Counted from the first letter of the stretch, positions 13,587 through 33,394 are shown. The stretch: 64,000 nucleotides of DNA from an uncultured Methanoregula sp. (GCA_963662735.1 OY759744.1:970153-1034152); one strand, 5' to 3'. Numbers and translations: made by a program. Notes: generated from the sequence alone by a model not told the origin.

Positions 13587-13590
13587 TGGT

Positions 13591-17413: not shown

Positions 17414-17430
17414 GGTCTCTTGACCTGTGT

Positions 17431-18005: not shown

Positions 18006-19295
18006 ATGTATTCGGTCCTTTATGTGGATGATGAGCAGGATCTCCTTGACATAGCCAAGCTCTTCCTCGAGAAATCCGGCGAGTTCAGGGTCGATACCTC
18101 GACTTCCGCAGAGGAGGCCCTCACATCCTCCCAAATCCGGTCATATGATGTCATCATCTCCGATTACCAGATGCGGGAGATGGACGGGATCACGTTTCTG
18201 AAAACCGTCCGGGAACGGTTCGGTGATATTCCGTTCATCCTCTTCACCGGCCGGGGCCGCGAGGAGGTCGTGATCGATGCGATCAACCATGGCGCGGATT
18301 TCTACCTCCAGAAAGGCGGCGACCCGAAAGCGCAGTTTGCCGAACTGTCCCATAAGATGCGCCAGGCAGTGAGGCGCAAGCAGGCGGAACGCTCGCTCCT
18401 GGAATCGGAGCGGCGGCTCTCCGATATCATCAACTTCCTGCCCGATGCCACGTTTGCTGTTGACGAGGCCGGAAATGTCATCGCGTGGAACCGCGCCATT
18501 GAGGAGATGACCGGTGTCCCTGCCGCCGCAATGCTGGGTAAAGGAGATTTTGAGTATGCGATCCCGTTCTATGGTTCACGGCGCAGGGTTCTTATCAACC
18601 TTCTCGATGCAGCGGACGAAGTAACAGCGCCGCTCTATTCGGATATTTACCGGAACGGGACCTCGCTCGCGGCCGAGACCGATATTATCTTCCCGAACGG
18701 AAACCTGATCCATGTGCTTGCCCGGGCATCCCGTCTTTACAACCAGGAGGGCGAGATCACCGGGGCGATCGAGTCCATCCGGGATATCACGACCCGTAAA
18801 CGCGACGAGGCTGCATTACAGCAGGTTACAACAGAACTGCAGCTGATCTTCAAGAACATGATCAATGCGTTTATTGTCTGGGAGTCGGTCTTTGACGAGA
18901 ATGGCAATTATGTCAGTTTCCGCTTCGGGCAGTTCAATGATGCCTATGCCCGGATCGCGAAGGTGAATTATGAGGATGTGCGGGGCAAGGACGTGTTCGA
19001 GGTCTGGCCCACTACCGAGATGAGCTGGGTGGAAGTGTACGGCCGGGTGGCAACGACCGGCATTCCCCATGCGTTTGACATGTACCATGAGCCTACCAGG
19101 GGATGGTACCACTGCAATGCGTACCGGCCTACGGACTCGCCGGCCCAGGTCTGCGTTATCTTTGAGGATATCACGGAGCGCAGGAAGGCGGAAGAAGAAC
19201 TCCGTGCTGCCTACGAGCAGATCACCGCCACCGAAGAGGAACTGAGAAGCCAGTACGAGGATCTGACCAACCAGGACAAGAGCAGGACCCCGTGA
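18006..19295 (+). CDS. response-regulator receiver domain fused to two PAS domains, with no kinase or other output domain
   Basis: Receiver motifs (YVDDE...ISDYQM..MDG...LFTGRG), then PAS segments separated by coiled linkers (KAEEELRAAYEQITATEEELRSQYEDL). Confidence 0.85.
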   Translation: MYSVLYVDDEQDLLDIAKLFLEKSGEFRVDTSTSAEEALTSSQIRSYDVIISDYQMREMDGITFLKTVRERFGDIPFILFTGRGREEVVIDAINHGADFYLQKGGDPKAQFAELSHKMRQAVRRKQAERSLLESERRLSDIINFLPDATFAVDEAGNVIAWNRAIEEMTGVPAAAMLGKGDFEYAIPFYGSRRRVLINLLDAADEVTAPLYSDIYRNGTSLAAETDIIFPNGNLIHVLARASRLYNQEGEITGAIESIRDITTRKRDEAALQQVTTELQLIFKNMINAFIVWESVFDENGNYVSFRFGQFNDAYARIAKVNYEDVRGKDVFEVWPTTEMSWVEVYGRVATTGIPHAFDMYHEPTRGWYHCNAYRPTDSPAQVCVIFEDITERRKAEEELRAAYEQITATEEELRSQYEDLTNQDKSRTP

Positions 19296-19438
19296 GGGAT
19301 ATGCCGGGCCGTCCTTTGCCTGAAATCTTTTTACCGGGCCTTACCTGAAAAATCCCGACCGGGTTCCGGTTGCATTTTTTCTGCCGGGTTTTGAAAAAAT
19401 GAGGGCGGGAGTATTTTCTCCCACCCCGTTTGTTCCTA

Positions 19439-19576
19439 TTACTTCGGCGTGTTCCCGCCGGATCCCATGTGATCGAGGACCCGGTCCCAGATGACGATGA
19501 GGCCGGGGATGATCACGTAGGCGAGCAGTCCTGCACCGAGGAATGCTCCCGTGAGGATGAGTTCGTTGTCCATCAT
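19439..19576 (-). CDS. possible 45-aa single-TM peptide (below the ORF-track size cutoff)
   Basis: Hand translation gives MMDNELILTGAFLGAGLLAYVIIPGLIVIWDRVLDHMGSGGNTPK*. It starts 7 nt after the stop of the upstream 167-aa gene and is preceded by a GGTGGGG SD-like element. Confidence 0.4.
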   Translation of the reverse strand: MMDNELILTGAFLGAGLLAYVIIPGLIVIWDRVLDHMGSGGNTPK

Positions 19577-19582
19577 CCCCAC

Positions 19583-20086
19583 CTATCCCAGTGCTGCTAC
19601 GGTGTCTGCCCAGGTCTCGACCCTGCTCCGGATCGCTTCATCGGAATACGAGGTAAGGGTCACCTGATCCCGGCTGAAGTTGACGAAGTAGAGCTCGCCG
19701 TTGGCATCGTGGCATTTTAGGGTGGCGGTGAACTTCTCGTTGTCGCGGTCACGGATCGGTGTCCCGCCGATCGTGGTCGCGATCTCCGTGTCTGCAACAA
19801 TGCGGTTGGCGACACTGGTGAACGCTGCGATGGTAGGCGTCCTGACCGTGATGAGGGCGATGGTCTTTGCATCGGAGTCCTGGTAGAAGATCCGTGCGGT
19901 GTAGCCCTGTTTGGTGCGTTCTACCGGGGGGTGGTTCACTCCCTGTGCATTGTAGGAAACGCACTGGAAGGGGTTGTTCGCAATGACGCCCTGGACAAGG
20001 TTGTCGAAGGCAGTCACGTCTGCGAGCGGGGCCGCGAGTTTGCGGACCGCGCTCTTCGTGGTGTTGCTTGTCGTAAAGTCTGCCAT
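19583..20086 (-). CDS. hypothetical 167-aa protein, no recognisable family
   Basis: I use ATG 20086 (MADFTTSNTTKSAVRKL...) rather than the 20278 start in the ORF track. Composition is balanced and not low-complexity. Confidence 0.55.
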   Translation of the reverse strand: MADFTTSNTTKSAVRKLAAPLADVTAFDNLVQGVIANNPFQCVSYNAQGVNHPPVERTKQGYTARIFYQDSDAKTIALITVRTPTIAAFTSVANRIVADTEIATTIGGTPIRDRDNEKFTATLKCHDANGELYFVNFSRDQVTLTSYSDEAIRSRVETWADTVAALG

Positions 20087-20205
20087 TTCTGGTCTCTCCT
20101 TTCTTGTCTGCCGGGGAGTTCTCCGAACTTCCCGGTGGTTTGTCGCGGGGCGCCCTTTGACATACCAATGTTGGCACTCATAGGGTATATCCCAAAAAAG
20201 GAGAA

Positions 20206-20904
20206 TTAAACCGGGGCTGGTACGGGCCGCGGTGGGGAAAAGGGGCAGGGAGCGCTTCGCGCCTGCTGTACCGGGCATGCCGGTGCAGCAGTTTTTGGAA
20301 CGGGCGCAGGAACAGCGTCCGTTTTCATGATCTTCTGCATAGTTACAACGTTCCCGATACCCCAGTCATAGACCCGGTAGCGGAGCAGGCCCTTCTCGCG
20401 GGAGAAGATCCAGAACTGGAGGTTGTCGGCATGCGACTTCCAGTGCGACTCCATCTGCCGGATCTCCTGTTCGTAGAGTTCCGCAACATTGGCAGCGTTC
20501 CGGACGGGATCCCGGGGCAGGACAACCCGGACAAGGAGGGAGTCCTGGTGATTCCAGGCATCGAGGTTGAAGGGGAACCCGTCTTCATGGTTCCGGAAGA
20601 CCCGGTAGCCTTCCGCTTCCAGGATGCGTACCGCTTCTGGCAGGCACCGGGGGTTATGCATCCCGGCGGGTTTTTTCGTCTTCGACCTCACGGGAAGTTT
20701 TCGCTCTTTTTTCCCCGAGGGGTGGTTCTTTTTGCTTTTCACGGTGTGGCGGGACGGATTCACCTTCCCGCTTGCCGCCGGTGCCCGGCCTGATGCCGTG
20801 CCGGCGGTTCTGGTAATCCTGGTGTTCGTGTGCATACTATCATTGCTGGTTCTCTCCGACAACGGTACTTGTACCCAGGCAGCGTTTCTGTTCGTTTCCG
20901 GCAT
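20206..20904 (-). CDS. hypothetical protein with a basic disordered N-terminal part and a C-terminal domain of nuclease-fold-like topology
   Basis: The C-terminal block LPEAVRILEAEGYRVFRNHEDGFPFNLDAWNHQDSLLVRVVL resembles the alpha-beta-beta-beta core of Hjc/PD-(D/E)xK folds but lacks the E-x-K. The start is uncertain: the ORF track start 20931 is TTG, and in-frame ATGs occur at 20904, 20835 and 20661. Confidence 0.45.
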   Translation of the reverse strand: MPETNRNAAWVQVPLSERTSNDSMHTNTRITRTAGTASGRAPAASGKVNPSRHTVKSKKNHPSGKKERKLPVRSKTKKPAGMHNPRCLPEAVRILEAEGYRVFRNHEDGFPFNLDAWNHQDSLLVRVVLPRDPVRNAANVAELYEQEIRQMESHWKSHADNLQFWIFSREKGLLRYRVYDWGIGNVVTMQKIMKTDAVPAPVPKTAAPACPVQQARSAPCPFSPPRPVPAPV

Positions 20905-21359
20905 GAAGCTCCCTGTGCAGTCACATCCCAAAGATTCCGTTTACGGGATAGTCTGTTGTGCGATACGTCCCACAGTGTCTTTCCGGGTTTCATCCGTGAA
21001 ACACTGTGTTATTCTAAAAAAAGAATCATTTTTGGATTTAAATATAGAGGATGGGAGGGGTTAGAGGAATGGGTGGGATGGGTTGGAGATCGGGATTGTT
21101 GAAGGAGAGTGTGTGAGCCGTCCGAGATCAGGATTCGGTTCCTGGGGAATCAACGATTCCTGCTCCTGATTAATTCCCCGTTTACTTACACGACCAAATC
21201 CATTCTAAGTATATACAATGTATACACACAGCATTTTGTGCCAAATGCGTAAACTCCGATTAACTTAGAACCGTGATTTTATGATAGATGAACCAAGTTT
21301 TCGTTGTAAGTGTTTTGGCGAATCAAGAACGGCAGGAGAACTTGTGTGAGAACGTCAGC

Positions 21360-22451
21360 TTAGCTCACTTTAAGTAATCCCGATTCTGAAATTATGGAAT
21401 ACATATCATCGAGTAATGTCGCGGAAACATTTGTATCCACGCAATCTGCGCATAATGCACTACGATTATAATGTACGAGTAATCTTATAAAAAAAGGGGC
21501 TTGGCAATGTTTTTTAGGAATATTTCTCTTACATGAGTTTAATAAAATTCTTCTAAAATACTGTAATCTATTTTCACAGTTTAGATCTGGCATAGATAAG
21601 GCCATGATTCTGAGTTTTGCATCGATTGAAGAATATTTAAACCGTATTGCCAATTTCTCGATATTATCTCCTTTTGGTAACCGGACATTAAATTGAGATC
21701 TCAAAAAAGTGATAGGATCCTCAAGATAGATTGTAAAATTAAATATTGAGTCAATCCCGAGATCGTTATCCTGTAGTTCCAAATTGTTACCATATTTATC
21801 TTTAATAATTTCTAAAATTCTCGATTTAATTGCTTCAATTGTCAATTCGGGATTTATCTCTACAACAAAGAAGTCATGTTCTTCGTCGATCGGCTCCATG
21901 CGTTTTTGGTAAACGTAAATAACTTTTTTATGCTCAGCGTAATATTCACCCGTATCTTCAATTATTTTTAAAAATTTAAATGAAATTTTAGGAAATTCTC
22001 GTTCCAATTTATCATGGGAACTTTTTAGCGCCATATATCCGCATACTTTTTTGAACCCGCCTAGCACTTCCAATTTGAATGGTGATAACCGAAGGATATC
22101 TCTCGTCTCTTTTCCGGTCGTAATTGCGTCTGTCAGAAGGATATTACTTTTATCAAAATTAAACACAGAGAAAAAATGATGTTCCATCGAATGCTGGCCT
22201 CGATGGCTGAGTGGTTTAATGGAAATAATAGTGCGCATTCTCTTAATGCTGTTTAGATAAGGATGGAATAGGTTCAATCCTTTGCGTTCGACAGCGATTA
22301 TGTTCGTTTCTTTATCCTGAACAATTTCTTTAATAAAAAAAGGGAAGAGCTCGTTGTCAATCGCATTTGCTAATCTTAGTGATTCTTCATCCGAAATGTA
22401 CCCCATTTGATTTTTTATTGTTATTGAGTCTTCAGTTGAGGATTTATCCAT
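21360..22451 (-). CDS. PRTase-like (phosphoribosyltransferase-fold) domain protein with an uncharacterised Cys-containing C-terminal domain
   Basis: 363 aa in AT-rich DNA. It has a NIIAVERKG segment and a PRPP-loop-like motif SNILLTDAITTGKETRDIL. The C-terminal ~200 aa are unassigned, with Cys clusters SCKRNIPKKHC and LCADC. Confidence 0.6.
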   Translation of the reverse strand: MDKSSTEDSITIKNQMGYISDEESLRLANAIDNELFPFFIKEIVQDKETNIIAVERKGLNLFHPYLNSIKRMRTIISIKPLSHRGQHSMEHHFFSVFNFDKSNILLTDAITTGKETRDILRLSPFKLEVLGGFKKVCGYMALKSSHDKLEREFPKISFKFLKIIEDTGEYYAEHKKVIYVYQKRMEPIDEEHDFFVVEINPELTIEAIKSRILEIIKDKYGNNLELQDNDLGIDSIFNFTIYLEDPITFLRSQFNVRLPKGDNIEKLAIRFKYSSIDAKLRIMALSMPDLNCENRLQYFRRILLNSCKRNIPKKHCQAPFFIRLLVHYNRSALCADCVDTNVSATLLDDMYSIISESGLLKVS

Positions 22452-22522
22452 CTCTTTATATTTTACGTATTTTTGATTTGTATCTTCCGAATACTGATAA
22501 ATAATTAAAACATAAGTTATAC

Positions 22523-22537
22523 GTTCAAATTTTGAAC
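22523..22537. promoter_or_regulatory. inverted repeat GTTCAAA-t-TTTGAAC in the divergent intergenic region
   Basis: 7-bp arms with a 1-nt spacer, between the PRTase-like gene and the wHTH gene. Candidate operator. Confidence 0.25.
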
Positions 22538-22740
22538 CTAATGCCCAAATAATAAACTATATAACCAGAAAAGAAGACATTATGGATAGACCTACTTTCA
22601 TGGTCGTGTTCCCATGAAGCCATGGGAGCAATCAGTAAAAAGTGGGACTATGACAACAACCTTCTCTCCAACTGAACCCCACAGTTTATGAGAAATCCGT
22701 ATGCGGGTTAGGTTAAGGAGACGTTGATAGATTGACATCT

Positions 22741-23025
22741 ATGTTAAAAAATCCCTTGTCCAACGAGTTAAAAGTGGCAACCGAGATATTCGGATGCCAA
22801 GAGCGGGGAGAGAAGGTCTGGCTTGGTAAACTCCAGGCAAGCTTAAACGGAGAGATCAGTAAGAACACGGTCTCTGCGGCACTGGATACCCTGTTTGACT
22901 GGGGCATTATCAAGGCAGAGTACGGCGAGACGGAAAATGGAAGGGCGGGACGATTGCTGATGATCAGCAACGAGTCAACCCCCATGATTAAAGAACTCTA
23001 CGAAAAATACTGGAAAAACCGATAA
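22741..23025 (+). CDS. small winged-helix DNA-binding protein
   Basis: 94 aa. ...ISKNTVSAALDTLFDWGIIKAEYGETENGRAGRLLMIS resembles a recognition helix plus beta-wing. ATG 22741 is used because the ORF track start 22732 is TTG. Confidence 0.55.
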   Translation: MLKNPLSNELKVATEIFGCQERGEKVWLGKLQASLNGEISKNTVSAALDTLFDWGIIKAEYGETENGRAGRLLMISNESTPMIKELYEKYWKNR

Positions 23026-23035
23026 GCAGTGAGAT

Positions 23036-23818
23036 ATGGATACCTCTATTTTTCCCAAGTATGAGTACAAGGGGATTACCCATCCCCAGAAGACCATTCT
23101 TGTCGCGGTTTCCAAATATGCGGAGAGCTTCCTGCGGTTTGCTCCGCGGAAGATCCAGAATTTTCCCTCCCACGGGGTTGATCATTCTGTCAGTATCATC
23201 CGGATGATCAATTCCTTTCCTGAAGAATGGGGGATCAAACTTACGAGAACCGAGCGGTTCATTCTCTATGCAGCAGCATGGCTCCATGACATCGGCTGCG
23301 TGAAGGACCGGACCCCGCACAACAAGATCTCGGTTGACATCCTGATGAACAGCGAGAGCATCTGCGATTCCTTCAACCGCCTGGACAGCGACCTGCTCTT
23401 CATCCTTGAGTATGTCATCGAGAGCCACTCCTCATCGTATGACATCAGCACGGTCCCAGCGAAACGGGGAGCAGTACGGGTCCGTCTCATCTGTGCGATC
23501 TTCCGGCTGCTCGATGCGTGCGAGATCACGAACTTCAAGTGTCCTGCCTCGGTATATGCCGAGATTAAGGACGACCTGAAAACCCCGGATGGATCGGTTG
23601 ATACTGATGCTATCGAGTTCTGGGAAGGGCACATGAACATCAAAGATCTCGGGTTCTTCAAACCGGAGATTGTTGTTCTTGTCAATCATGCCCGTAAGAG
23701 CAAGAAGATCACGGACCGGCTGGTCAAGGAAATTGAATCTGTGCAGGAGATCTTTCGCGAGAATGGGATGGATGTGCCGGTTGTAAAGGTCAAGGCGAGA
23801 ACAGCTGGGATTGATTGA
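23036..23818 (+). CDS. HD-domain metal-dependent phosphohydrolase
   Basis: HGVDHSVSII ... AAAWLHDIGCV ... ESHSS ... FRLLDACE, an H..H / HD / H / D pattern. Starts 10 nt after the wHTH gene. Confidence 0.7.
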   Translation: MDTSIFPKYEYKGITHPQKTILVAVSKYAESFLRFAPRKIQNFPSHGVDHSVSIIRMINSFPEEWGIKLTRTERFILYAAAWLHDIGCVKDRTPHNKISVDILMNSESICDSFNRLDSDLLFILEYVIESHSSSYDISTVPAKRGAVRVRLICAIFRLLDACEITNFKCPASVYAEIKDDLKTPDGSVDTDAIEFWEGHMNIKDLGFFKPEIVVLVNHARKSKKITDRLVKEIESVQEIFRENGMDVPVVKVKARTAGID

Positions 23819-23841
23819 AAGAAAATTGGTAATTCAGAAAA

Positions 23842-24933
23842 TTACTCCAAATAAAACTGATCAATTAACGGAATATCTTTCTTTTTTAGATCAAAAAAGC
23901 TCTTGTATTGGTCATCAAGGTTATCATAATGGGACAATATCCAATCAACCAGACTATCCTGATCAATAAGTTTGATATTCTTTTTTCCCGAGGCCTCCGC
24001 CTCTTCAATGGCAGGTCTAGTAAATGTACCTATAGTAACAATTGCTCCGTGTTCATCCGTTCCAAGGGCACCCCGTAACTGAAGCACAACAGTATTACCA
24101 ATAGGTTTCGGAACCTGCTTTACTTGGACCTTTAAATCAAGGGTGACCAATTCAGTCGAAAGATACCCGTCTATATCAATTCCTTTATCGCCGACATATT
24201 GCCTGTTTGCTGCTTCGAAACCACTTATACTGAGTAAATGGGAGGTAAATTCTTCAAACTGTCTGGGGTTCATGCTCAACAAACGCTCTATGATACGACT
24301 ATGAATATCTTGTCCGGTTACTTGTGTTATTGGATTCTGCAGATTTGCCGAAGATTTCTCTGATATCAAGGATTCAACTTCGATCTTATGTTCTTCGAGA
24401 GATATAACTGTCAACCAGACAAGTGAGTTTTTCAGTTTAGTGGAAAGTTCCGAACGGGGTATTGATCGTACCCACTCAACATTCCGCCGGTTCGTATATG
24501 GGCATTTGTCACCCCAGTTTTCCTTCCACTGGTAATCACCGCTGATCCGACCGATGATCACTGATCGTTTCGAAGGATTGGGTAAAAGGAAGATATCGCC
24601 ATGTTTGATAGTTCGGACAAAACGGAGGATTTCACCACACTGGATCCCGACCTGGCTGTTGGTGACATTCTCATAGATGCGTTTATGGAGCACTTTCAGC
24701 TTTTTCAGTGCATCCTCTTCAGACGCTGATGATAGCAGCCAGCTGAGGTCCCCGAGTTCATTCCAACCAATGGCGATGAACTTTTTGGAATATCCTTCAT
24801 CGACATATTTTCCCCCCTCGCCAAGCCTGATGCCCCAGTATGCGGTCATGTGGATCAGAGGGGTATTGGTTAAAGGAGGATATAAGAGGATATCAAATCC
24901 ATTTTTTTGTGTATTTAGAATAGTTATACTCAT
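23842..24933 (-). CDS. Mrr-family (type IV) restriction endonuclease with an unassigned N-terminal domain
   Basis: The C-terminal FEEFTSHLL...GDKGIDIDGY...LKVQVKQ...LRGAL...GAIVTIGTFTRPAIEEA matches the Mrr catalytic core. The N-terminal ~170 aa carry a FIAIGWNELGDLS motif. Alternative start at ATG 24849. Confidence 0.75.
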   Translation of the reverse strand: MSITILNTQKNGFDILLYPPLTNTPLIHMTAYWGIRLGEGGKYVDEGYSKKFIAIGWNELGDLSWLLSSASEEDALKKLKVLHKRIYENVTNSQVGIQCGEILRFVRTIKHGDIFLLPNPSKRSVIIGRISGDYQWKENWGDKCPYTNRRNVEWVRSIPRSELSTKLKNSLVWLTVISLEEHKIEVESLISEKSSANLQNPITQVTGQDIHSRIIERLLSMNPRQFEEFTSHLLSISGFEAANRQYVGDKGIDIDGYLSTELVTLDLKVQVKQVPKPIGNTVVLQLRGALGTDEHGAIVTIGTFTRPAIEEAEASGKKNIKLIDQDSLVDWILSHYDNLDDQYKSFFDLKKKDIPLIDQFYLE

Positions 24934-25504
24934 CTAATAATTTCAAAATGGGTTTTTTAGGATTAATTACTTCAGTTTTTAATTGTTCAACTTGTTGTTT
25001 TGAAATCCGACTAAATTTTAAGTATTTTCCTGCGGGATCGTTTGAATAATGACAATGATACGCTCTCGCAATTTTATCATCCCAAATCGGGAAAAATGAT
25101 GGAGCTAATAGATGCAATGTCTTTGCAACAGATACCGGACTTCTCGATCCTTTTTTTGTGCCCTCCTCAATCTGAAGGGCAACCAAAAAATCCAGAAAAA
25201 TTAAACGCAACAATTTCTCATCTGATTCAGACAGGGTAGTTATCTCTCTATTTCTCAGGATAGTAAGTTTGTCAAAATGTTTAACGAGACATTGTTCTAA
25301 ATCATCAAAATTAAAAAACCCATAACGGTAGAAAGCTTGGTTCCAGGTTAAAAGCAAAACTCCCAAACCATCGGTCATATCGGTGAAATTTCCCCAATTT
25401 TCTTTGATCAATTTTGTTGCAACTTTATACATTGCATCTCGTTTTTCGTGTTTTTCAAATTCCTCACAACCCTTTTGGAATTCATCGAATTGAATTTTCA
25501 GCAT
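24893..25504 (-). CDS. hypothetical 203-aa protein
   Basis: AT-rich helical protein, family not recognised. Its ATG lies 6 nt downstream of the stop of an hsdS remnant. Confidence 0.55.
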   Translation of the reverse strand: MLKIQFDEFQKGCEEFEKHEKRDAMYKVATKLIKENWGNFTDMTDGLGVLLLTWNQAFYRYGFFNFDDLEQCLVKHFDKLTILRNREITTLSESDEKLLRLIFLDFLVALQIEEGTKKGSRSPVSVAKTLHLLAPSFFPIWDDKIARAYHCHYSNDPAGKYLKFSRISKQQVEQLKTEVINPKKPILKLLDEYNYSKYTKKWI

Positions 25505-25510
25505 AAACGA

Positions 25511-25663
25511 TCAAACCCCACCCGCCACCTGCTTGACCACCGCCCCCGCCAGCCGCGCCTGAACACCCGCCCTCTCTTTGAACTGTGATTCGAGGGCATC
25601 GCAAATACGGCGATCTTGTGTGCGCGAAAAGCTGGGTTCCAAATGAAGTTTCAGATGATGGAT
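25511..25663 (-). pseudogene. hsdS 3-prime remnant 1
   Basis: Hand translation gives IHHLKLHLEPSFSRTQDRRICDALESQFKERAGVQARLAGAVVKQVAGGV*. The intact HsdS C-terminus reads ...PHLNVGDVKNFQVPLPPLAEQHRIVAKVDALMALCDALESCLKERAGVQSKFATAVVKQIGSM*. The remnant is a GC-rich patch in AT-rich surroundings. Confidence 0.8.
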
Positions 25664-26072
25664 TTACTGACATTCCAAAGCTCTATCAATGAGATAATAA
25701 TATATTATTAATATGCCGAGCTCGACATTTCAGTTCATTATGAAGAATCCCCCAACAATTTGCTTAGGTGGGGGAATACTGCTGTCACTCGCTGGGAATC
25801 CTCTCGGGGGTGCGGCACTTATAGTGATCGGTGTGTTCCTTGCAATCGCGTAACTGACATAAATCCGAACCGTCGCTATTCACAAGGATATCGATTCTGT
25901 ACCTCTGGGATTAAATATCCGCCGAGCACTTTTTTTTACATCCTTCTCAACCTTCCCAGTATCGAACCGAAGGATGTTTTGATGGTATACCTCATCTGTG
26001 CGGAGAATTACGAGCCAGAACCAAGAATCATAATGAAGGGTTTTATAATTAATTATTTCCATTTAGATACTT

Positions 26073-26390
26073 ATGATCATTGGAACTGAAATGCCGACAG
26101 CAGAAAGGCAAACACTTGAAATAAAAGATGGGGAATTCATTCTCAAGAAAATCCCGCGAAGCGACACTGGAGGCGGGAGACTCAATATTGATAAAGTAAA
26201 TGAAAAATGGCATATACAACTTCATACTCCGAAGGGCGAAATTTATGATTTTATTCCGCTTCAATTCGACGATACAAAAATCAACGATGCAGTTTACATA
26301 AAAACAGCGCTAGAAAAGGAGGCCGGGGATGGGGGCGCTGACAAATTATTGATAATTGGTGGGGAACAAATGTGGAAAAAGCAAGAATAA
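26073..26390 (+). CDS. hypothetical 105-aa protein
   Basis: The only sizeable ORF between the two hsdS remnants, and on the strand opposite to its neighbours. No recognisable motifs. Confidence 0.35.
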   Translation: MIIGTEMPTAERQTLEIKDGEFILKKIPRSDTGGGRLNIDKVNEKWHIQLHTPKGEIYDFIPLQFDDTKINDAVYIKTALEKEAGDGGADKLLIIGGEQMWKKQE

Positions 26391-26417
26391 ACCAAAATTT
26401 TGATTAGTGCTTTAATA

Positions 26418-26565
26418 TCATCCCATCACCTGCTTCACCACCGTCCCTGCACTCCCGCCCTTGCTTGGAGTTGTGATTCAAGGGCTCGAAGAAACCTGAG
26501 GTTTCTTCTCAAGGCACAGAGCGCCACATCGCACAACGCCAATCTGCGTGTAATGAGGGCAACGA
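26418..26565 (-). pseudogene. hsdS 3-prime remnant 2 (frameshifted, interrupted by a hairpin)
   Basis: Reads ..LALCD-[hairpin insert]-ALESQLQARAGVQG, then a -1 shift, then TVVKQVMG*. A perfect 9-bp stem gaagaaacc-tga-ggtttcttc lies at 26488-26508. Confidence 0.7.
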
Positions 26566-26590
26566 AAACATGCGTATTGAAAAAGGGGGG

Positions 26591-27247
26591 TTACTGTTCT
26601 GCATCTTTCAGTCGTTCAAACTCCAAGCCGGGAATCTTGATTTTACTTGCAAAAGGTAATAAAAATAGCCCTAAAACAACTCCAATTAATGCAATTTGTT
26701 CCGTTTTTAAAACAAGGAAACCGGTAAGATTCAAGATTAAAATAACAAGGCTACCGAATCCGAGAATCCAACATACTAACTGAAAATTTTTAATTGCATT
26801 TTCCTTTTCATTTAACAACTCAAAAAGCGTTTTCTGACGGGCACTATTCTTTAAAATTGAAATTTTTGGGATTTGATCGGATGAGAAAAAATCATATGAA
26901 TCAGCATCATCAGGATCTTGTTTTATTCGAGTTATTTCCAACGGTGTGTCTTTACTTTCGTTAGGATAAACAACAAATAATGGAATATCTTGATTTTTCA
27001 ATAATGACGCATATCTTTTTAATTGAAATTCCGCATCTTTTTCACGTTTTCGGTCTTTTCGACTTTTTATTTCAAATAATGCAATGGGTTTGTTGAGGAG
27101 TTTATCGATGATAGCTAAATCCACACGATAATGATGCCCATTGGACTCAATTGGCCATTCAAGGGCGATTGAATCCTCGGAGACCCCTTGATGTTTTAGG
27201 GTTTCAATTAAAATATTAACAAGTTCTCTTTCGTGAAATTCTCTCAT
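26591..27247 (-). CDS. PD-(D/E)xK (HsdR-N-terminal-like) nuclease-fold domain fused to two C-terminal transmembrane helices
   Basis: The N-terminal HHYRVDLAIIDKLLNKPIALFEIKS gives a D...E-x-K arrangement. The C-terminal helices are WILGFGSLVILILNLTGFLVL and IALIGVVLGLFLLPFA. Its ATG lies 1 nt after the hsdS stop. Confidence 0.65.
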   Translation of the reverse strand: MREFHERELVNILIETLKHQGVSEDSIALEWPIESNGHHYRVDLAIIDKLLNKPIALFEIKSRKDRKREKDAEFQLKRYASLLKNQDIPLFVVYPNESKDTPLEITRIKQDPDDADSYDFFSSDQIPKISILKNSARQKTLFELLNEKENAIKNFQLVCWILGFGSLVILILNLTGFLVLKTEQIALIGVVLGLFLLPFASKIKIPGLEFERLKDAEQ

Positions 27248-27248
27248 A

Positions 27249-28877
27249 TTACATCGATCCTATTTGTTTTACTACGGCAGTAGCGAATTTACTTTGCACT
27301 CCCGCTCGCTCCTTCAGACATGATTCCAAGGCATCGCACAACGCCATCAGCGCATCAACCTTCGCGACGATGCGGTGTTGTTCGGCGAGCGGGGGGAGAG
27401 GGACTTGAAAATTTTTCACATCTCCCACATTTAAATGAGGTGATGAAGTTCCGCCAGTCTGCTCTTTTACTTTCATTTGCACAAATGGGGAATTTAATAA
27501 AATTAAAATATATTTTGGAATTGCTTTTTTTGGATTGACTCTTAGGAGCATCATCCGTTGGCCTAAACACGTTTTCAATCCTTTCGGGATCATACAAGCA
27601 ATCCCTAAAATTCCTCCCTCTCTACTAAACAAAATATCATTTTCACGAGGCTCTAATCTTGAAATTCTTTCAAGATATGTATCATGCGAAACATACCTTA
27701 CTTCAGTTAGATCCAAATAACCCGGTTTAAAATTTGTCGTACGTAAACAAATCTCCCCATTTTGAGTCCATTTTGGTGTGGAGTGCGGACAATCAACAAT
27801 GGTCTCACACACCCCGTTAATGTTATCCCATTGCCAAGATTGTGGAATATTTAAACGATATCCAATATCTGTAGAATCCTCTTTGACAAAAGAAACAAGA
27901 GGGATGCTTGATCCCTCATCTTTCGGCTTTAGTATTAACCGTCCTTGGATCGCCATTTGTAAAATTGTCTCCCGAAGCATCCTGGCATTCTCCGGGCAGT
28001 CAAAGATCAACTCAAAAGCATCACACACCTGCGCCCATTGCCGTTCAAATTCCTCCGGACTCTCTGAACTCTGCAATGCTATGAGACTCGCAGTCCCAAG
28101 CCGGAGGCTGACTGCCCGCTCCTGCAGTTGTTGAAATTCGATTTCATCACACAACGCCATCAGCGCTTTAATTTTAGCAATAATGCGATGCTGTTCAGCT
28201 AGAGGGGCAATTGGAATAAGGGTATTATTAGCAAAACTAAGATTTATCCCCCCCTGGGCAGCGCCTTTAAAATTTTCGAGTATTCGTGTTTGACCGATTT
28301 CAGAATACAGGTAATAAAAAGCAAATTGAGGAGTAATAAAATCATAAAAACGGCAAATAAAAACATGCTCATTAATGCATGCTTCGGAGAATGGAAATCT
28401 GGAATCAACAAGAGAGACCTTACCGGTTGTTGCACCATCTTTTACAATGAGAAGATCTCCTGTCCGGATTTTTCCTTTTGTCATTTTTTGATAAAACTCA
28501 GGAGAAACGAATTTAATTGTACCAAATCTGAATCCCCCCCTTCCATCAAGATGCTCCCCACCTATACTAGGTATACCTGATTTGATCTCTCTTACTCCAC
28601 CTATTGGTCTCGAACCGGATTCTATAGATGATAAAACGTCAATTAAGGGCAATTGAATCCAGGATTTTGGGAGAATATGTGACTCATCCTCGGAAATATA
28701 CTGAAACTCCTTATGTAATGATGTCTCTATCATTTTTTTCGCGAACTCATCATTTGCATCTTGGGTACCAAGCCTTCCTGAAAAAGCTAAATCGAGGATT
28801 AGATTTCGTAGCTGGGCGATGCCCTCCGGGGCAGTGGCGAGCGTGGTGAACCGCTCGAATAGGAGATCGGTGCTCAT
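27249..28877 (-). CDS. hsdS: Type I restriction-modification specificity subunit HsdS
   Basis: 542 aa with two AT-rich target-recognition domains. These are separated by conserved coiled-coil repeats: central LAPLAEQHRIIAKIKALMALCDEIE and distal LPPLAEQHRIVAKVDALMALCDALE. Confidence 0.93.
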   Translation of the reverse strand: MSTDLLFERFTTLATAPEGIAQLRNLILDLAFSGRLGTQDANDEFAKKMIETSLHKEFQYISEDESHILPKSWIQLPLIDVLSSIESGSRPIGGVREIKSGIPSIGGEHLDGRGGFRFGTIKFVSPEFYQKMTKGKIRTGDLLIVKDGATTGKVSLVDSRFPFSEACINEHVFICRFYDFITPQFAFYYLYSEIGQTRILENFKGAAQGGINLSFANNTLIPIAPLAEQHRIIAKIKALMALCDEIEFQQLQERAVSLRLGTASLIALQSSESPEEFERQWAQVCDAFELIFDCPENARMLRETILQMAIQGRLILKPKDEGSSIPLVSFVKEDSTDIGYRLNIPQSWQWDNINGVCETIVDCPHSTPKWTQNGEICLRTTNFKPGYLDLTEVRYVSHDTYLERISRLEPRENDILFSREGGILGIACMIPKGLKTCLGQRMMLLRVNPKKAIPKYILILLNSPFVQMKVKEQTGGTSSPHLNVGDVKNFQVPLPPLAEQHRIVAKVDALMALCDALESCLKERAGVQSKFATAVVKQIGSM

Positions 28878-30331
28878 CGTGTATTCCTAGTAGGTGTCCC
28901 GAGCAATGCCATCAGTTCCTGCTTCAGCGCTTCACGGGCCATCTCTGCTTCGACCCTAACCCTCTCATACTCGCGGAGCAGTTCTTCAGGATCGCCTTGT
29001 TTGTCCGGCACAATGTTTGGGTTCTTTATGTCGAGGTTAAATCCGTTCGCAATAATCTGCTCTATCGACACCCGCCATGCATGCTCGTTCTCGGTGCGGT
29101 TCGTCCACCATGCCTTCTCAGGTTCGAACTCTGCTATCCGGATCGGCTTTGTCTTTGAGTACGACTTATAGCCCTCGGGATAGGTGTGTTCATAGTACCA
29201 GATTTCTTTTGTAGCCTTGCCTTTCTCGAAGAAGAGGAGGTTCGTTCTCGTTGGGGTATATGGGGCAAAGACATTTTTGGGCAATCGAATTATGGTATGG
29301 AGGTTGCATTCGGTCAGGAGTTTCTCCTTGATCCGGCTCTTCACACCCTCGCCAAAGAGCGTTCCGTCGGGGAGCACGATCGCGGCCCGGCCGCCATCTT
29401 TGAGGATGTGCATGATCAGGACAAGGAAGAGATCGGCCGTCTCCCGGGTCTGGTACATGGACGGGAAGTTGGTCTCGATCCCGTCCTCCTCCATGCCGCC
29501 GAACGGCGGGTTCGTCACGATCACATCTACCCGGTCCCGTGCCGAGTAATCCTTCAGCGGGCGGGCAAGGGTGTTGTCATGCTTGATCTGGATCGGGACA
29601 TCGATGCCGTGCAGCATCATGTTCGTGACGCAGAGCAGGTGCGGCATCGGCTTCTTCTCGACCCCGTGGATCGAGTTCCGGAGCAGTTCCTCGTCTTTCG
29701 GGTTCTTAACCGTTTTCCGGATATTCTCGATGGCACAGGCAAGGAACCCGCCGGTACCGCAGGCCGGGTCAAGGATCGACTCGCCAAGCTTCGGGTCCAC
29801 CTGATCCACCATGAACTGCGTCACGGCCCGGGGTGTGTAATACTCCCCGGCATTGCCCGCACTCTGGAGGTCTTTTAAGATCTTCTCGTAGATCTCCCCG
29901 AACAGGTGACGATCCTCGGTCTTGTTGAAATCGATCTCATTGATCTTGTTCGCAACCTGGCGGATCAGCGTCCCGTTCTTCATGTAGTTGTACGAGTCCT
30001 CGAAGACCTTGCGGATCAGGATCCCGGAACCATTGAGGCCCGCTTCCGCAGGGAGTTCTTTGAGGGTCGGGAAGAGGTCGGCATCAATGAACTTCAGGAG
30101 CACGTCGCCTGTGATCCCCTCGGCATTGCCCGCCCAGTTCCGCCACCGGAGCCGTTCCGGCATCGGCGACCGGTACCCCTTCTTCATCAGCTCGTACTCT
30201 TTTTCCTTGTCATCGAAGATCTTCAAAAAAAGCATCCAGCCGAGTTGGCTGATCCGCTGGGCGTCGCCATCGACCCCTGCATCCTTCCGCATGATGTCCT
30301 GGATCGTCTTGATCGTGGTTCCGACTGCCAT
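28874..30331 (-). CDS. hsdM: Type I R-M DNA methyltransferase subunit HsdM (N6-adenine)
   Basis: HsdM N-terminal domain, SAM motif DPACGTGGFL and catalytic NPPFGG. Overlaps the hsdS start by 4 nt. Confidence 0.95.
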   Translation of the reverse strand: MAVGTTIKTIQDIMRKDAGVDGDAQRISQLGWMLFLKIFDDKEKEYELMKKGYRSPMPERLRWRNWAGNAEGITGDVLLKFIDADLFPTLKELPAEAGLNGSGILIRKVFEDSYNYMKNGTLIRQVANKINEIDFNKTEDRHLFGEIYEKILKDLQSAGNAGEYYTPRAVTQFMVDQVDPKLGESILDPACGTGGFLACAIENIRKTVKNPKDEELLRNSIHGVEKKPMPHLLCVTNMMLHGIDVPIQIKHDNTLARPLKDYSARDRVDVIVTNPPFGGMEEDGIETNFPSMYQTRETADLFLVLIMHILKDGGRAAIVLPDGTLFGEGVKSRIKEKLLTECNLHTIIRLPKNVFAPYTPTRTNLLFFEKGKATKEIWYYEHTYPEGYKSYSKTKPIRIAEFEPEKAWWTNRTENEHAWRVSIEQIIANGFNLDIKNPNIVPDKQGDPEELLREYERVRVEAEMAREALKQELMALLGTPTRNTR

Positions 30332-30361
30332 AAAAAATTCAGCTCCCTCGTATTCGTGCCG

Positions 30362-32665
30362 TCAGCACTCGGCGGTATAGAGACACCGTTCGAGCCGGCG
30401 TATTGCTTCCATATAGTTGGCGCTCCCGCCAAAAATAGTGTTCACAATCTCCATCGGTGTACCGAAGGTTGTGAACGGATCCACCTTCAGCACTTCCATG
30501 TTCTCAATATCGCCGATCCCGCCATCGGAGTATTTCGACAGGAGGGCATCCAGTACCTTCCGTGCCTTGTCGCCGTACTTCGTGAAGTAATCCGCTTTCC
30601 GGACCTTTGCTGCCCGTTCCCTGCGGGACAGGGGTGGCTGGCCGAAGACCACGTGGCAGATCAGGTCGAAGGGATCGTAGTCCTTCCCCACCTGCTCCTG
30701 GAGCGCCTCGAAGAGTACGCCTTGCTCCTCCAGTTCCTCCAGGATCACCGTCTTCTGCTCCGCCTTCGTCCACGAACTCATGAACGCATTCAGCGTAGCA
30801 TACTGCCGGGTCACATTCTTCTTCGTATAATCTTCCAGCGACTCCGTGATCAGCTTCCCGTCGGCCGCCATGTACTGGACGCGCTCGGCAACCACAGAAA
30901 CCGGCACATCGTTCACCACGTACCGCCTCATCCCGTCTCCCGGTGGCTTGGGTGCGGGAGGATCAATCGGATCGGTCGGGTCGTACTGGCTCCCGTCAAG
31001 CGGTTCGCCGTCAAAGTCCGGGTCGGCAAAGAGCTCGCTCACCTTCCGGAAGTCCATGATCGTGAAGAAGAACTTGTTGTAATCCTCGTTGATCCGGGTC
31101 CCCCGACCGATGATCTGCTTGAATTCGGACATCGATTCGATCCGTTTGTCGATCACGATCAGCTTGCAGGTCTGGGCATCCACGCCGGTCCCCATCAGCT
31201 TCGAGGTGGTTGCAATGACGGGATACTTGGAATCCGGCATGATGAAGTTGTCCAGTTCTGCCTTCCCGTCCGGGCTGTCGCCCGTGATCCGGACAACATA
31301 CCTGCCGTTCTCCTTCACCAGATCCGCGTTCTCGTTCACGAGACAACTCCGCATTCGTTCGGCGTGATCGATATTCTCGCAGAAGACGATCGTCTTGTCG
31401 TACCTGCCGGTGTTCTTGAGGAAATCCGAGATCTTCCGGGCCACGAGTTCCGTACGGTGCTCTAGGACAAGGCTCCGGTCGAAGTCCTTCTGGTTGAAGA
31501 TACGGTCCTCGATCTCCACGCCGTACTTGTCCTTCTGCCCCCGGGTTGGTCGCCATCCCTGCAAATCCTTGTCCAGATCGATCCGGTACACCCGGTACGG
31601 GGCAAGGAACCCGTCTTCGATCCCCTGCTTCAGTGAATATTCATACACGGGCTTCCCGAAATAATGGACACTGGAGACGTACTTCGTCTCCTTCGGGGTC
31701 GCTGTCAGCCCGATGTGGGTAGCCGATGAGAAATAGTCGAGGATTTCCCGCCACATCGCATCGTCCGCAGCACTTCCCCGGTGGCATTCGTCGACAATGA
31801 TCAGATCAAAGAAGTCCCGGGAGAACTGCTTGTAGATGTTGCGCTCCTCCTCGTTGCCGGATACTGCCTGGTAGAGTGAGAGATAAATCTCGTAACTCTT
31901 GTCCACCTGCCGGTTCGCGATCTTCGTCATTGCCGACCCGAACGGCTTGAAATCGTTCGTCTTGGTCTGGTCGACAAGGATATTCCGGTCCGCAAGGAAC
32001 AGGATACGCTTCTTGGTGCCGGACTTCCAGAGCCGCCAGATGATCTGGAATGCCGTATAGGTCTTGCCGGTCCCGGTGGCCATCACGAGCAGGACCCGGT
32101 CCTTTCCGTTCGCAATCGCCTCGATTGTCCGGTTGATCGCGTTTATCTGGTAATACCGGGGCATCTTCCGGATGTCGTCGATATAGTAACTCTGGGTGAT
32201 GATCTGCTCTTTTTTGTCGTCGATCCCTTTCCATTTCCGGTACCGGGTCCAGAGGTCAGTGGGGCGGGGAAATTCGGTAAGTGAGAGTTCCCTCTCCATG
32301 GGCTCATAATTGCCGGAACGGTCGTGCAGCAAAAACCCGTCACCATTGGAACTGAACACAAACGGGATATCCATCATTTCTGCATAGGCAAGAGCCTGCT
32401 GCATCCCGGCTCCCACGATATGCGTGTTGTCCTTTGCCTCGATCACGGCAATCGGCAGATTCTGTTTATAGTAAAGAATATAGTCCGCCCTTCGCGGCTT
32501 GGCGCGGCTCACGGAGTTGCCATTCACAAGAACCCGGCCATCGGTGACGTTCACCTCTTCCCGGATCTGGTGATGGATGTCCCAGCCGGCCTGGGTCAGT
32601 GCGGGTGTAATGAATTTGGTGCAGATGTCCCGCTCCGTCAATGCCTTCTTGTCCAGTCCAACCAT
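30362..32665 (-). CDS. hsdR: Type I restriction enzyme R subunit HsdR (EcoEI-like C-terminal domain)
   Basis: N-terminal PD-(D/E)xK (ADYILYY...IAVIEAKD), helicase motifs (MATGTGKT, DECH), and an EcoEI_R_C-like C-terminus. The ORF track start 32692 is TTG, and I prefer ATG 32665 (MVGLDKKALTERDICTKFITPAL). Confidence 0.93.
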   Translation of the reverse strand: MVGLDKKALTERDICTKFITPALTQAGWDIHHQIREEVNVTDGRVLVNGNSVSRAKPRRADYILYYKQNLPIAVIEAKDNTHIVGAGMQQALAYAEMMDIPFVFSSNGDGFLLHDRSGNYEPMERELSLTEFPRPTDLWTRYRKWKGIDDKKEQIITQSYYIDDIRKMPRYYQINAINRTIEAIANGKDRVLLVMATGTGKTYTAFQIIWRLWKSGTKKRILFLADRNILVDQTKTNDFKPFGSAMTKIANRQVDKSYEIYLSLYQAVSGNEEERNIYKQFSRDFFDLIIVDECHRGSAADDAMWREILDYFSSATHIGLTATPKETKYVSSVHYFGKPVYEYSLKQGIEDGFLAPYRVYRIDLDKDLQGWRPTRGQKDKYGVEIEDRIFNQKDFDRSLVLEHRTELVARKISDFLKNTGRYDKTIVFCENIDHAERMRSCLVNENADLVKENGRYVVRITGDSPDGKAELDNFIMPDSKYPVIATTSKLMGTGVDAQTCKLIVIDKRIESMSEFKQIIGRGTRINEDYNKFFFTIMDFRKVSELFADPDFDGEPLDGSQYDPTDPIDPPAPKPPGDGMRRYVVNDVPVSVVAERVQYMAADGKLITESLEDYTKKNVTRQYATLNAFMSSWTKAEQKTVILEELEEQGVLFEALQEQVGKDYDPFDLICHVVFGQPPLSRRERAAKVRKADYFTKYGDKARKVLDALLSKYSDGGIGDIENMEVLKVDPFTTFGTPMEIVNTIFGGSANYMEAIRRLERCLYTAEC

Positions 32666-32710
32666 CCCGTGATTCTTCTGTATCTCTGACAATCCGCTAA
32701 TACCTTTCTA

Positions 32711-32718
32711 TTTAAATA
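32711..32718 (-). promoter_or_regulatory. candidate TATA box for the hsdRMS operon
   Basis: tttaaata lies 46-53 nt upstream of ATG 32665. Confidence 0.3.
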
Positions 32719-32780
32719 AAAATCCGCCATGAAACTCAACCATTCTATTCCACCGCACCAAAGCAACCCTTCCCATTTTC

Positions 32781-33202
32781 CAGCCAGACCCTGCTTCAAA
32801 AATTCCAGTCGCGATCACGATCCCGATCAAAAACCGTTCGCAGATCAATCGAACCTTGATTTGAAATTTTCAATCAAACCTTGATTAAAAAATTTCAACC
32901 AGACTTTGATTGAAAATTTTTCAGCGAACCTTGATTGAAAAACCGCACTCGCGATCCCGCGTCCGTCGTGAACTGGAAAAATAAACGTATGCACAAGTGG
33001 TTAACTTTTCACAACCAGACCTTGATTGAAAATTTTCAGGCAGACTTTGATTTTTATTTTTCAATCAAGCTTTGATTTCAAAATGTTAATCGCGATCATG
33101 ATCGCGATTGAAAAACCGATCCGGATCAATCAAACCCTGATTTGAAATTTTCAGTTAAACCTTACTTGAAAAATTTTAACCGGACTTTGATGACAAAAAG
33201 TT
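32781..33202. repeat. array of eleven degenerate ~25-bp AT-rich units (CA-N5-6-A[CT][CT]TTGATTGAAAATTTT)
   Basis: Units by eye: 32781-32805, then four contiguous at 32841-32944, three at 33010-33087, and three at 33127-33202. No ORF covers this region. Confidence 0.85.
33088..33109. repeat. perfect 22-bp palindrome AATCGCGATCATGATCGCGATT
   Basis: Its reverse complement is identical. Related CGCGATC elements occur at 32808-32830 and 32948-32961, each between blocks of the 25-bp units. Confidence 0.85.
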
Positions 33203-33394
33203 AACCAGATCAACAACAGGAATCACCCAATCATCCTTATTCCGGGCGGATCTCTGTTACATCAGCCACCCACTTGAACCGCCGGTAACTACTCCTGCTC
33301 CCTTCCTTAACTGAAATGTTTATTGCCCCCACCGGTTACTATGTGGTATGGGGTGGAGGTTCCGGTGCACGGTCACCGGGGGGAGCAAAACCGC

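Follow-up and report, generated by a model that had tools for sequence, protein, structure and literature searches.

The window analysed here is a 64,000-nucleotide (nt) stretch of the chromosome of an uncultured Methanoregula sp. (GCA_963662735.1 OY759744.1:970153-1034152). Between ahaD and a convergent gene of the V_ATPase_I family it contains a variable slot, and this slot is occupied by what is probably a layered defence island, remodelled by homologous recombination without an integrase and carrying several genes with proposed defence roles. The backbone of the island is a type I restriction–modification (R-M) operon, hsdR-hsdM-hsdS; directly 3' of hsdS lies a hypervariable cargo bay, and beyond the bay a strictly conserved group of three genes, the triad (o363, a putative winged helix-turn-helix (wHTH) gene and an HD-CE hydrolase gene). 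Coordinates are collected in Table 1. An earlier note on this DNA had read about 14 kb of it as a defence-type accessory block whose mobility mechanism was unclear. That reading is supported, and a provisional answer can be given to the question of mechanism: homologous recombination at conserved hinge segments rather than the action of an integrase.

The slot was compared across 79 loci fetched around ahaD, one genome per species (L002-L080). AhaD of the window is 96-97% identical to that of two Methanoregula metagenome-assembled genomes. Of the 49 Methanoregula loci which have both border genes, 40 show ahaD and the V_ATPase_I-family gene 67 bp to 1 kb apart, so that the block is absent from those 40, and the remaining nine show a gap of 1-4.9 kb. 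In nine further loci the slot runs for more than 7.5 kb after ahaD and the second border gene is not reached; slot length in the other Methanoregula loci ranges from 67 bp to more than 10 kb. The contrary case envisaged in the earlier note, a block conserved with uniform composition in related genomes, was examined and is not what the relatives display, the slot being shorter than 1 kb in 40 of 49. The flanks proposed there, a response-regulator gene with a PAS domain and an MFS transporter gene, proved not to be stable. The former has a sole relative among L002-L080, in L022, which is 47% identical and in the opposite orientation, and no MFS homologue was matched at the slot in any of these loci; the variable slot extends beyond both. 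Elsewhere it holds genes for TPR, PKD, methyltransferase, STAS and PAS proteins together with two DDE transposases, and the STAS gene of the window recurs in the slot of L003, L015, L017, L025, L032, L035 and L049-L051. The slot is therefore a genus-wide variable region of Methanoregula chromosomes, and a general plasticity zone wider than a defence site alone.

A related island at the same slot was found only in the two closest relatives, L002 and L003, in which the cargo is different and the per-gene identities are mosaic. As in defence islands at large, the region combines type I R-M with a member of the PADLOC family PDC-S02, varies in content between relatives and is absent from most congeners. 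The bays of related loci hold RhuM/PDC-S05, Schlafen-AlbA_2, another Mrr, Exo_endo_phos, Fic and PIN genes. Since RhuM/PDC-S05, Schlafen-AlbA_2, Fic, PIN, Mrr and type I R-M are all typical cargo, a defence island is the reading adopted.

The core of the island stands out in composition. The G+C content (GC) is 40.7% at 21000-28850 against 57.0% outside the slot, where the lowest 1-kb window reaches 49.1%, and across 21-29 kb, and nowhere else, the correlation of tetranucleotides with the remainder of the window drops from about 0.8 to 0.45-0.65. The mosaic composition claimed in the earlier note is thus borne out by sliding GC and tetranucleotides, and the counts quoted in it (20 of 60 G+C at 21361-21420, 34 of 60 at 15361-15420) are exact, but the low-GC core spans only about 21.0-28.9 kb and is narrower than the block then delimited; the leftmost 1.7 kb of that block, containing o231 and o241, is host-like. 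GC at third codon positions (GC3) is 0.26-0.43 in o363, o203, o218, hsdS, o105 and the Mrr gene, 0.60-0.66 in the wHTH and HD-CE genes, and 0.70-0.84 in most host-like genes, including o231, o241 and the MFS gene, with STAS at 0.61. The genes hsdM and hsdR, at 0.76, are host-like, as had been described. The island from hsdR to o363 is also present in an independent sequencing run, ERR12015700 (Logan contig L001, 11.9 kb), with proteins 100% identical.

Open reading frames (ORFs) were scanned with four hidden Markov model (HMM) libraries, Pfam, NCBIfam, PHROGs and PADLOC v2. The three backbone genes are intact and carry matching domains, and the operon, which had been called complete at the outset, is predicted to encode a complete type I R-M system of the EcoEI type, with HsdR, HsdM and HsdS each assigned at gene level. 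HsdR shows a DECH box and a D...EAK motif, as befits an N-terminal PD-(D/E)xK nuclease joined to an SF2 helicase/translocase. HsdM matches TIGR00497 (6.2e-19, below the equivalog cut-off), and the precomputed annotation of the identical protein lists HsdM_N and N6_Mtase. Across loci the amino-acid identity is 85-94% for hsdR and 85-92% for hsdM, and sliding identity places the DNA of both genes at 80-97% with five other loci. HsdS, meanwhile, is a mosaic, in which conserved ends of host-like GC enclose two low-GC target-recognition domains and a 72-nt internal repeat lies between the central and C-terminal conserved regions. Identity to relatives drops exactly at the first recognition domain and recovers at the conserved regions: the recognition domains stand at about 45%, the central region at about 70% and the C-terminal region (the last ~100 bp) at 81-89%. 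A gene with Schlafen/AlbA_2 and HATPase_c_4 domains stands between hsdM and hsdS in L087 (1745-3433) and L111 (6535-8205); this site is a second insertion bay in the operon.

The first gene of the cargo bay, o218, corresponds to the membrane-anchored PD-(D/E)xK protein of the earlier note, a description that stands: the product matches HSDR_N_2, resembles the HsdR N-terminal domain, and has the motif D43...E58-x-K60 and a hydrophobic stretch at residues 152-208. A PDB sequence search gave no usable match. Its family comprises six proteins and lies directly 3' of hsdS in all three contexts available (the window, L102 and L111), and o218 is probably an accessory of the same R-M family. The Mrr-family nuclease reported earlier is likewise confirmed. 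It retains GIDIDG...VQVK and matches PDC-S02 (2.4e-64) over residues 29-352, nearly the full profile, with an N-terminal DUF8426-like domain; no usable PDB sequence match was obtained. Its neighbour o203 belongs to a family of 1396 proteins (clusters at 90% identity, E<=0.001), typically of 203 aa, distributed over Bacteria and Archaea. It is about 60% identical to proteins from Campylobacterota, Bacteroidales, Spirochaetota and others, and a few longer members of the family carry a fused PF24706. An AlphaFold 2 model of o203 (predicted local distance difference test score, pLDDT, 90.7) gave no significant fold match in PDB and BFVD, HhH-GPD glycosylases coming top at E ~1, and a PDB sequence search gave no usable match. 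A role as fixed partner of Mrr was ruled out, as the genomic contexts of o203 vary. The remaining cassette gene, o105, is 91% identical in amino acids and 92-97% in DNA to its counterpart in L002; in the four libraries its only match was a marginal one, to a PHROG without a name (phrog_28675, E 0.0013).

The nearest relatives differ from cassette to cassette. Those of o218 are confined to L102 and L111 and those of o105 to L002, whilst none of the related R-M or triad loci examined has a counterpart of o203 and Mrr. Between hsdS and the HD-CE gene lie 0.4 kb (L083, L098) to 3.4 kb (the window), with different filler genes in each locus, among them another Mrr_cat protein, an Exo_endo_phos protein and several without a family.

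What appears to mark the entry of the cassettes is a series of copies of the 3' end of hsdS (roughly its last 100-150 bp), which stand behind cargo cassettes in the window and in five other loci. The window has two. Remnant 2 is an island of 62% GC in surroundings of 31-41% GC, and its nearest DNA match is in L085 (81%). Remnant 1 is degenerate, and better-kept copies stand behind the o218 homologue in L102 (2.8e-6) and L111 (1.7e-16). Further copies occur in L002 (one, behind a different coupled gene) and in L085 (two, each ahead of a cargo gene), and lone copies lie beside HD-CE on the short contigs L090, L091 and L099. All are in direct orientation and without a recognition domain, some are frameshifted, and their starting points within the conserved region differ (residue 1, ~12 or ~20). 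In L111 the live hsdS end and its copy both have the unusual sequence LELRLKERA and then split, into QSKF... and QGRLAG..., which places a crossover inside the segment. Furthermore, the QSKF-type tail, o218 and the remnant travel as a unit, which has three distinct hsdS alleles ahead of it, those of the window, L102 and L111. From the hsdS-end copies behind cassettes and the crossover signature of L111 we infer homologous entry within the hsdS 3' end.

An alternative is that the copies arose from repeated replacement of the whole of hsdS by incoming linear DNA, homologous on the hsdM side and completed by an illegitimate joint just upstream of the resident 3' end, with no crossover inside the segment. 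Such replacement would yield the same stacked layout and would accommodate the varied starting points of the remnants. It is nevertheless rather unlikely, since in L111 the unusual 5' part is identical and only the tails differ, and since one tail-o218-remnant unit stands behind three hsdS alleles.

Under the reading preferred here, entry of cargo through the hsdS 3' end, related genomes would exchange segments by homologous recombination at short conserved hinges without an integrase, as the sequence mosaic suggests. Such hinges would be provided by hsdM and the hsdS 5' end, by the conserved regions of hsdS in its centre and at its C-terminus, and by the wHTH gene and leader of the triad. New cargo would enter by a crossover within the last 100-150 bp of hsdS, keeping hsdS intact and leaving a duplicate of its end behind the new cassette. 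If the incoming DNA is circular, one crossover of the Campbell type would suffice; a donor that already has the layout could instead recombine by a double crossover. As to function, family knowledge suggests that the type I enzyme would cut unmethylated incoming DNA and the Mrr-type enzyme modified DNA. In the triad, the protein with a phosphoribosyltransferase (PRTase) fold may bind or convert a phosphoribosyl compound, the HD-CE hydrolase may be the effector, and the small protein together with a conserved leader may keep the unit repressed.

A second candidate for a role in mobility is a tandem array of 25-nt units between the starts of hsdR and the MFS gene. Many of its units are imperfect palindromes, and it occurs at one place only in the window (8 array matches with <=3 mismatches, 10 window-wide against 1.3 expected by chance). 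At least 16 other Methanoregula loci have homologous arrays in their ahaD slot. In L036 and L049 the o231 insert has arrays on either side, in direct orientation, and so has the entire R-M island of L111 (Ga0265296_1000057), which, at 1975-15150, lies between prolyl-isomerase genes and the EF-2/S7/S12 operon. The order there is hsdR, hsdM, Schlafen-AlbA_2, hsdS, o218, an hsdS-end copy and Fic, with o241 and o231 further on, and the arrays are at 1975-2650 and 14915-15150. As o241 and o231 are found in the islands of both the window and L111, both genes accompany the R-M island at two sites. The arrays have no Rfam family, and their 15-nt core gave only single chance-like matches in IMG/VR among the 80 viral loci listed (120 stretches matched). 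A replication origin was considered, and general scans of the ORFs, with no search dedicated to it, revealed no Orc1/Cdc6 family. The arrays may serve as landing pads, as iterons or as sites for protein binding.

Such arrays invite the view that the island is a decayed integrated mobile element (a plasmid, integrative conjugative element or provirus), which entered site-specifically and has since lost its integrase. The low-GC core would fit, the direct arrays bracketing the L111 island and the o231 insert resemble att sites or iterons, and two other genomes have DDE transposases in this slot. This origin is unlikely, however, on several counts. No integrase, recombinase or transposase family was matched in the main ORFs of 17.4-34.7 kb in the four HMM libraries, nor was any replication, conjugation, plasmid, capsid, terminase or virus family in the block. 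There is no tRNA at the borders, the only one in the window being Leu-CAA at 43209, 8.5 kb past the slot, and no flanking direct-repeat pair in 18.5-34 kb, so that the window offers neither the enzyme nor the att repeats or tRNA target of an integrative mobile element; its array stands at one end only. The earlier note, which had seen no integrase, transposase, flanking tRNA or capsid-type genes, was right in this, and the unassigned ORFs, which it had allowed might be housekeeping genes, include no housekeeping-family match. In addition, hsdR and hsdM are host-like and diverge as the flanks do, and neither relatives of o363 nor the triad were found in IMG/VR.

Beyond the bay, the triad is intact, with o363 divergent to wHTH and HD-CE, in all 23 of the non-redundant loci whose flank is long enough to judge, whilst the identity of o363 over these loci ranges from 22% to 90%. 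The o363 product has no family match in the four libraries and no PDB sequence match. Foldseek comparison of its AlphaFold 2 model (pLDDT 82) gives 109 PDB chains with E<=1e-3; the best 50 of these 109 are almost all type I PRTases. The best matches are uracil, orotate and adenine phosphoribosyltransferases (UPRT, OPRT, APRT), with probability 1.00 and target-normalised TM-scores of 0.38-0.55. The model thus predicts a type I PRTase fold, and the PRTase-like protein of the earlier note is upheld by fold, not by sequence family. Invariant in the family are ERKGLNLF, TDAxxTGxE and the cysteines C307/C316/C334/C337 of a predicted C-terminal zinc ribbon. In the motif LLTDAxxTGxE a single, invariant Asp follows the Thr, and the canonical double-acidic phosphoribosyl pyrophosphate (PRPP) motif is not kept; this loss, with the lack of a sequence family, makes o363 a PRTase by fold only. 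The family is rare (42 clusters at 90% identity among 5.8e9, and 91 at 50% in 1.84e9), and low in GC in every host sampled.

The HD hydrolase with a wHTH partner described in the earlier note was confirmed in its first part, the hydrolase reaching 45.8 bits for HD-CE and possessing HGVDH and LHDIG, which places it in PF24391; for the partner there are weak winged-helix matches only. PDB sequence searches with both proteins gave no usable match. The small proteins of the triad measure 94-97 aa, or about 94-110 aa as mapped by tblastn, and HD-CE (253-261 aa across loci) is always directly downstream of the small gene. Of the three genes this small one varies least: in most loci with an o363 identity of just 53-72%, it still reaches 84-94%. 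Between it and o363 lies a noncoding leader with invariant blocks across 13 loci and the palindromes GTTCC-N13-GGAAC and GACC-N9-GGTC. In its predicted fold the invariant CCUUCUCUCC pairs with the GGAGG ribosome-binding site, with no compensatory changes, and Rfam gave no match. The leader was ruled out as coding, as there are stops in about half of the loci and no codon periodicity.

In eight loci the triad and the same R-M family are no more than a few kb apart, and hsdS ends or remnants stand beside the triad in four more short contigs. Three arrangements occur: the triad beside the hsdS end, inverted, or directly upstream of hsdR (L107). In L081, L082, L100 and L103 no R-M gene is present within the available flank. 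The link between triad and R-M is therefore frequent and not obligatory. In L081 (4802-6618) and L087 (5254-6625) two further genes come after HD-CE on its strand, one of 260 aa, 66% identical between the two loci, and one of ~200 aa, both without a family match; these may be optional extra parts of the triad. L099 has in its first 570 nt (1-570) the 3' part of a second o363 and then an hsdS-end remnant, and immediately downstream of these a complete triad, a layout that suggests tandem or replaced triads.

The triad supplies direct evidence of homologous exchange inside the island. L003 matches the window at 87-98% across o363, wHTH and the opening 100 nt of HD-CE, and at 61-74% beyond; L002, L087 and L090 match it at 82-97% over 22741-23740, which takes in most of HD-CE and wHTH, and at 55-78% in o363. 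The triad of the window is thus a recombinant of two sister alleles. In L085, o363 is 28% identical while hsdR is 93%.

PRTase and HD hydrolase folds are classic in nucleotide metabolism, and no defence model matches o363 or the small protein, so the triad and the unassigned ORFs might instead be a regulated nucleotide-salvage or signalling operon which merely lies in a variable region. Against this, the family is very rare and patchy, has low GC in all hosts sampled, recombines and diverges far faster than hsdR and hsdM, and stands beside R-M, Fic, PIN and RhuM genes, and the PRPP motif is reduced to T-D; a salvage operon is accordingly quite improbable. That the hsdS fragments are silent cassettes of phase-variable specificity switching, as several hsdS-derived segments near a live hsdS and bacterial precedents (PMC7672463) could suggest, can hardly be right, since they comprise the C-terminal region only, lack a recognition domain, are direct and not inverted, and are in some cases frameshifted or degenerate, and HMM scans of the block revealed no invertase or recombinase gene nearby.

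Several points weigh against a recombining defence island as set out above. In the sister species L002 and L003 the island occupies the same site and has diverged about as much as its flanks, from which it follows that the island as a whole has not recently moved. The low GC of the cargo persists across species without amelioration, which the model leaves unexplained. Remnant 1 of the window is weak taken alone (E 0.002-0.005), no circular intermediate or donor was seen, and the Campbell-type version of the model is indistinguishable from one-ended illegitimate joining. The defence role of the triad, o203, o105 and o218 is a candidate role, assigned through guilt by association; PADLOC v2 has no model for the triad and matches neither its o363 nor its small protein, and no publication describing the triad was found in the literature. 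Finally, the array-bracketed L111 island at its other chromosomal site hints at an additional, array-based mechanism which the model does not explain.

A wider reading, put forward only tentatively, links three ideas: that the hsdS 3' end (100-150 bp) is an integrase-free, integron-like capture site, at which defence genes are stacked behind type I R-M operons by homologous (Campbell-type) recombination, that the triad is a new nucleotide-centred form of immunity functionally coupled to this R-M family, and that the arrays are landing pads by which the whole island can move from one chromosomal site to another. The general interest lies in the fact that integrase-free defence islands are common and the gain and loss of their genes poorly understood, especially in archaea. 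Here pieces of R-M genes are the apparent recombination handles, and hsdS-end duplicates marking cassette entry offer a testable answer. The triad, which is rare, strictly conserved, rapidly recombining and often beside type I R-M, is a clean candidate for an immune module. If capture at the hsdS end holds widely, orphan hsdS 3' ends would provide a cheap scan for new defence genes.

Outside the backbone, bay and triad, the slot contains o231, whose relatives, at 70-86% amino-acid identity, occur in L002, L003, L013, L036, L049 and L050, and which also adjoins the same R-M island at a different chromosomal place in L111. It has no family match in the four libraries and no PDB sequence match, and is a semi-core resident of the slot marking one end of the island, not imported cargo. 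Homologues of o241, 24-30% identical, are found at the equivalent relative position in L002 and L003; it too is without a match in the four libraries or among PDB sequences. In Methanospirillum and Methanocalculus (L060-L075) the only V_ATPase_I homologue found, at 47-52% identity, is upstream within the aha operon in the same orientation, and the Methanoregula gene at the right border, which is convergent to the end of that operon, may be a paralogue. Further along the window, 43209-49243 is a stretch of lower GC (~50-53%) beside tRNA Leu-CAA, encoding DUF7289, DUF7266 and DUF7287 proteins, which are pilin-like, and a LysE transporter; no integrase was found in it.

Table 1. Features of the variable slot and its right border, in positions of the window
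Feature	Position	Strand	Remarks
Variable chromosomal slot	17414..34711	.	between convergent ahaD (end 17413) and V_ATPase_I-family gene; 17.3 kb here
STAS-domain gene	17431..17979	-	Pfam STAS 5.7e-16
Response regulator with PAS domain	18006..19295	+	Pfam Response_reg, PAS
o231	19583..20083	-	166 aa from MADF; ORF open to 20278; GC3 0.77
o241	20206..20931	-	low-complexity N-terminus; host-like composition
o363 (triad gene 1)	21360..22451	-	predicted PRTase-fold N-half, middle alpha/beta domain, C-terminal four-cysteine module
Divergent intergenic region o363/wHTH	22452..22731	+	~170 nt conserved noncoding leader; TATA-like CTATATA(A/T) box
Putative wHTH (triad gene 2)	22732..23025	+	weak winged-helix matches, E 0.014 and 0.07
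HD-CE hydrolase (triad gene 3)	23036..23818	+	PF24391 8e-12, 45.8 bits against gathering cut-off 27
Mrr-type PD-(D/E)xK nuclease	23842..24933	-	likely start M29 at ~24849; Mrr_cat 1.6e-18
o203	24893..25504	-	all-alpha; large family without a Pfam entry of its own
hsdS 3'-end remnant 2	25520..25609	-	RICDALESQFKERAGVQARLAGAVVKQVAG; noncoding; tblastn 83% over 30 aa, E 1.8e-11
o105	26073..26390	+	small protein; cassette common only to L002
hsdS 3'-end remnant 1	26438..26590	-	degenerate; begins right behind o218 stop; tblastn E 0.002-0.005
o218	26591..27247	-	HSDR_N_2 27.2 bits (cut-off 25); start 1 nt past hsdS stop
hsdS	27249..28877	-	Methylase_S in 2 stretches; PADLOC Specificity_I 8e-91, residues 19-538
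hsdM	28874..30331	-	N6_Mtase families; TNPPFG (NPPF) motif; GC3 0.76
hsdR	30362..32692	-	ResIII 2.4e-49, Helicase_C, HSDR_N 1.1e-11, EcoEI_R_C 3.7e-32
Tandem array	32775..33210	.	~11 units of 25 nt; minus-strand core AATCAAAGTCTGGTT and A/T spacer; between hsdR and MFS starts
MFS transporter	33395..34642	+	Pfam MFS_1, MFS_3; host-like composition
V_ATPase_I-family gene	34712-36646	-	right border of slot; convergent to ahaD

A number of parallels can be drawn with known systems. The immigration control region of E. coli K-12 consists of hsdRMS, mrr and mcrBC, is variable between strains and has no integrase of its own. Like the island, it is a chromosomal cluster of a type I R-M system and an Mrr-type nuclease; the island differs in being archaeal, in its cargo bay marked by hsdS ends and its triad, and in lacking McrBC. 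Integrons employ the IntI integrase, an attI site and attC hairpins between stacked cassettes. The island resembles them in that single-gene cassettes are stacked past a fixed entry point with a recurring short sequence between them. By contrast, it has no IntI, attI or attC, its recurring sequence is a coding piece of hsdS, and recombination is presumably homologous. With no integrase and with a coding remnant of hsdS as the inter-cassette element, it does not belong among the integrons.

PrrC is the classic case of a defence gene embedded in a type I R-M system. Extra genes are likewise nested in or beside the type I R-M operons considered here, and PDC-S02 (Mrr in the window) and PDC-S05 (RhuM in L002) are both PADLOC families of the 'phage defence candidate' (PDC) class. 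Payne et al. (bioRxiv 10.1101/2024.01.29.577857) describe such 'embedded' genes for loci of type I R-M, BREX, DISARM and Hma. The main text of that work contains neither 'HsdS' nor 'recombination' and apparently proposes no mechanism of arrival; in the island, by contrast, duplicated hsdS 3' ends point to one. Domain shuffling in hsdS and phase-variable hsdS invertons are known as well (PMC3874165, PMC7672463). The same mosaic is seen here, with recognition domains exchanged by recombination at conserved regions. Unlike the invertons, the island would also admit unrelated genes at the C-terminal region; its copies are direct repeats, and it lacks an invertase.

The triad, in turn, recalls two defence systems. 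ShosTA consists of ShosT (PRTase plus pyrophosphatase) and the DprA-like antitoxin ShosA. In it, as reported in PMC11961720 and PMC12961424, a PRTase-fold protein acts as a toxic effector disturbing nucleotide metabolism. A PRTase-fold protein is common to both, whilst its partners in the island are a small wHTH protein and HD-CE. As o363 and its neighbours have no PADLOC match (E<0.1) to any ShosT or ShosA model that the database may contain and no DprA-like gene is present, the triad is not assigned to it. Type III retrons comprise a reverse transcriptase (RT), a noncoding RNA (msr/msd), a PRTase-like effector and a winged-helix auxiliary protein (PMC7736814 and, for Retron-Eco11, PMC12746101). 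They share with the triad a PRTase-like and a small winged-helix protein beside a conserved noncoding segment. The triad has HD-CE in place of the RT, its leader structure is unsupported, and it shows no detectable sequence similarity to PADLOC models; with no RT family in the block and no Rfam match, it falls outside the type III retrons. Thus the type of island is a known one, and what is new is the recurrence of hsdS-end duplicates as apparent marks of cassette entry, with the plausible mechanism that they offer, and the triad as a candidate immune module.

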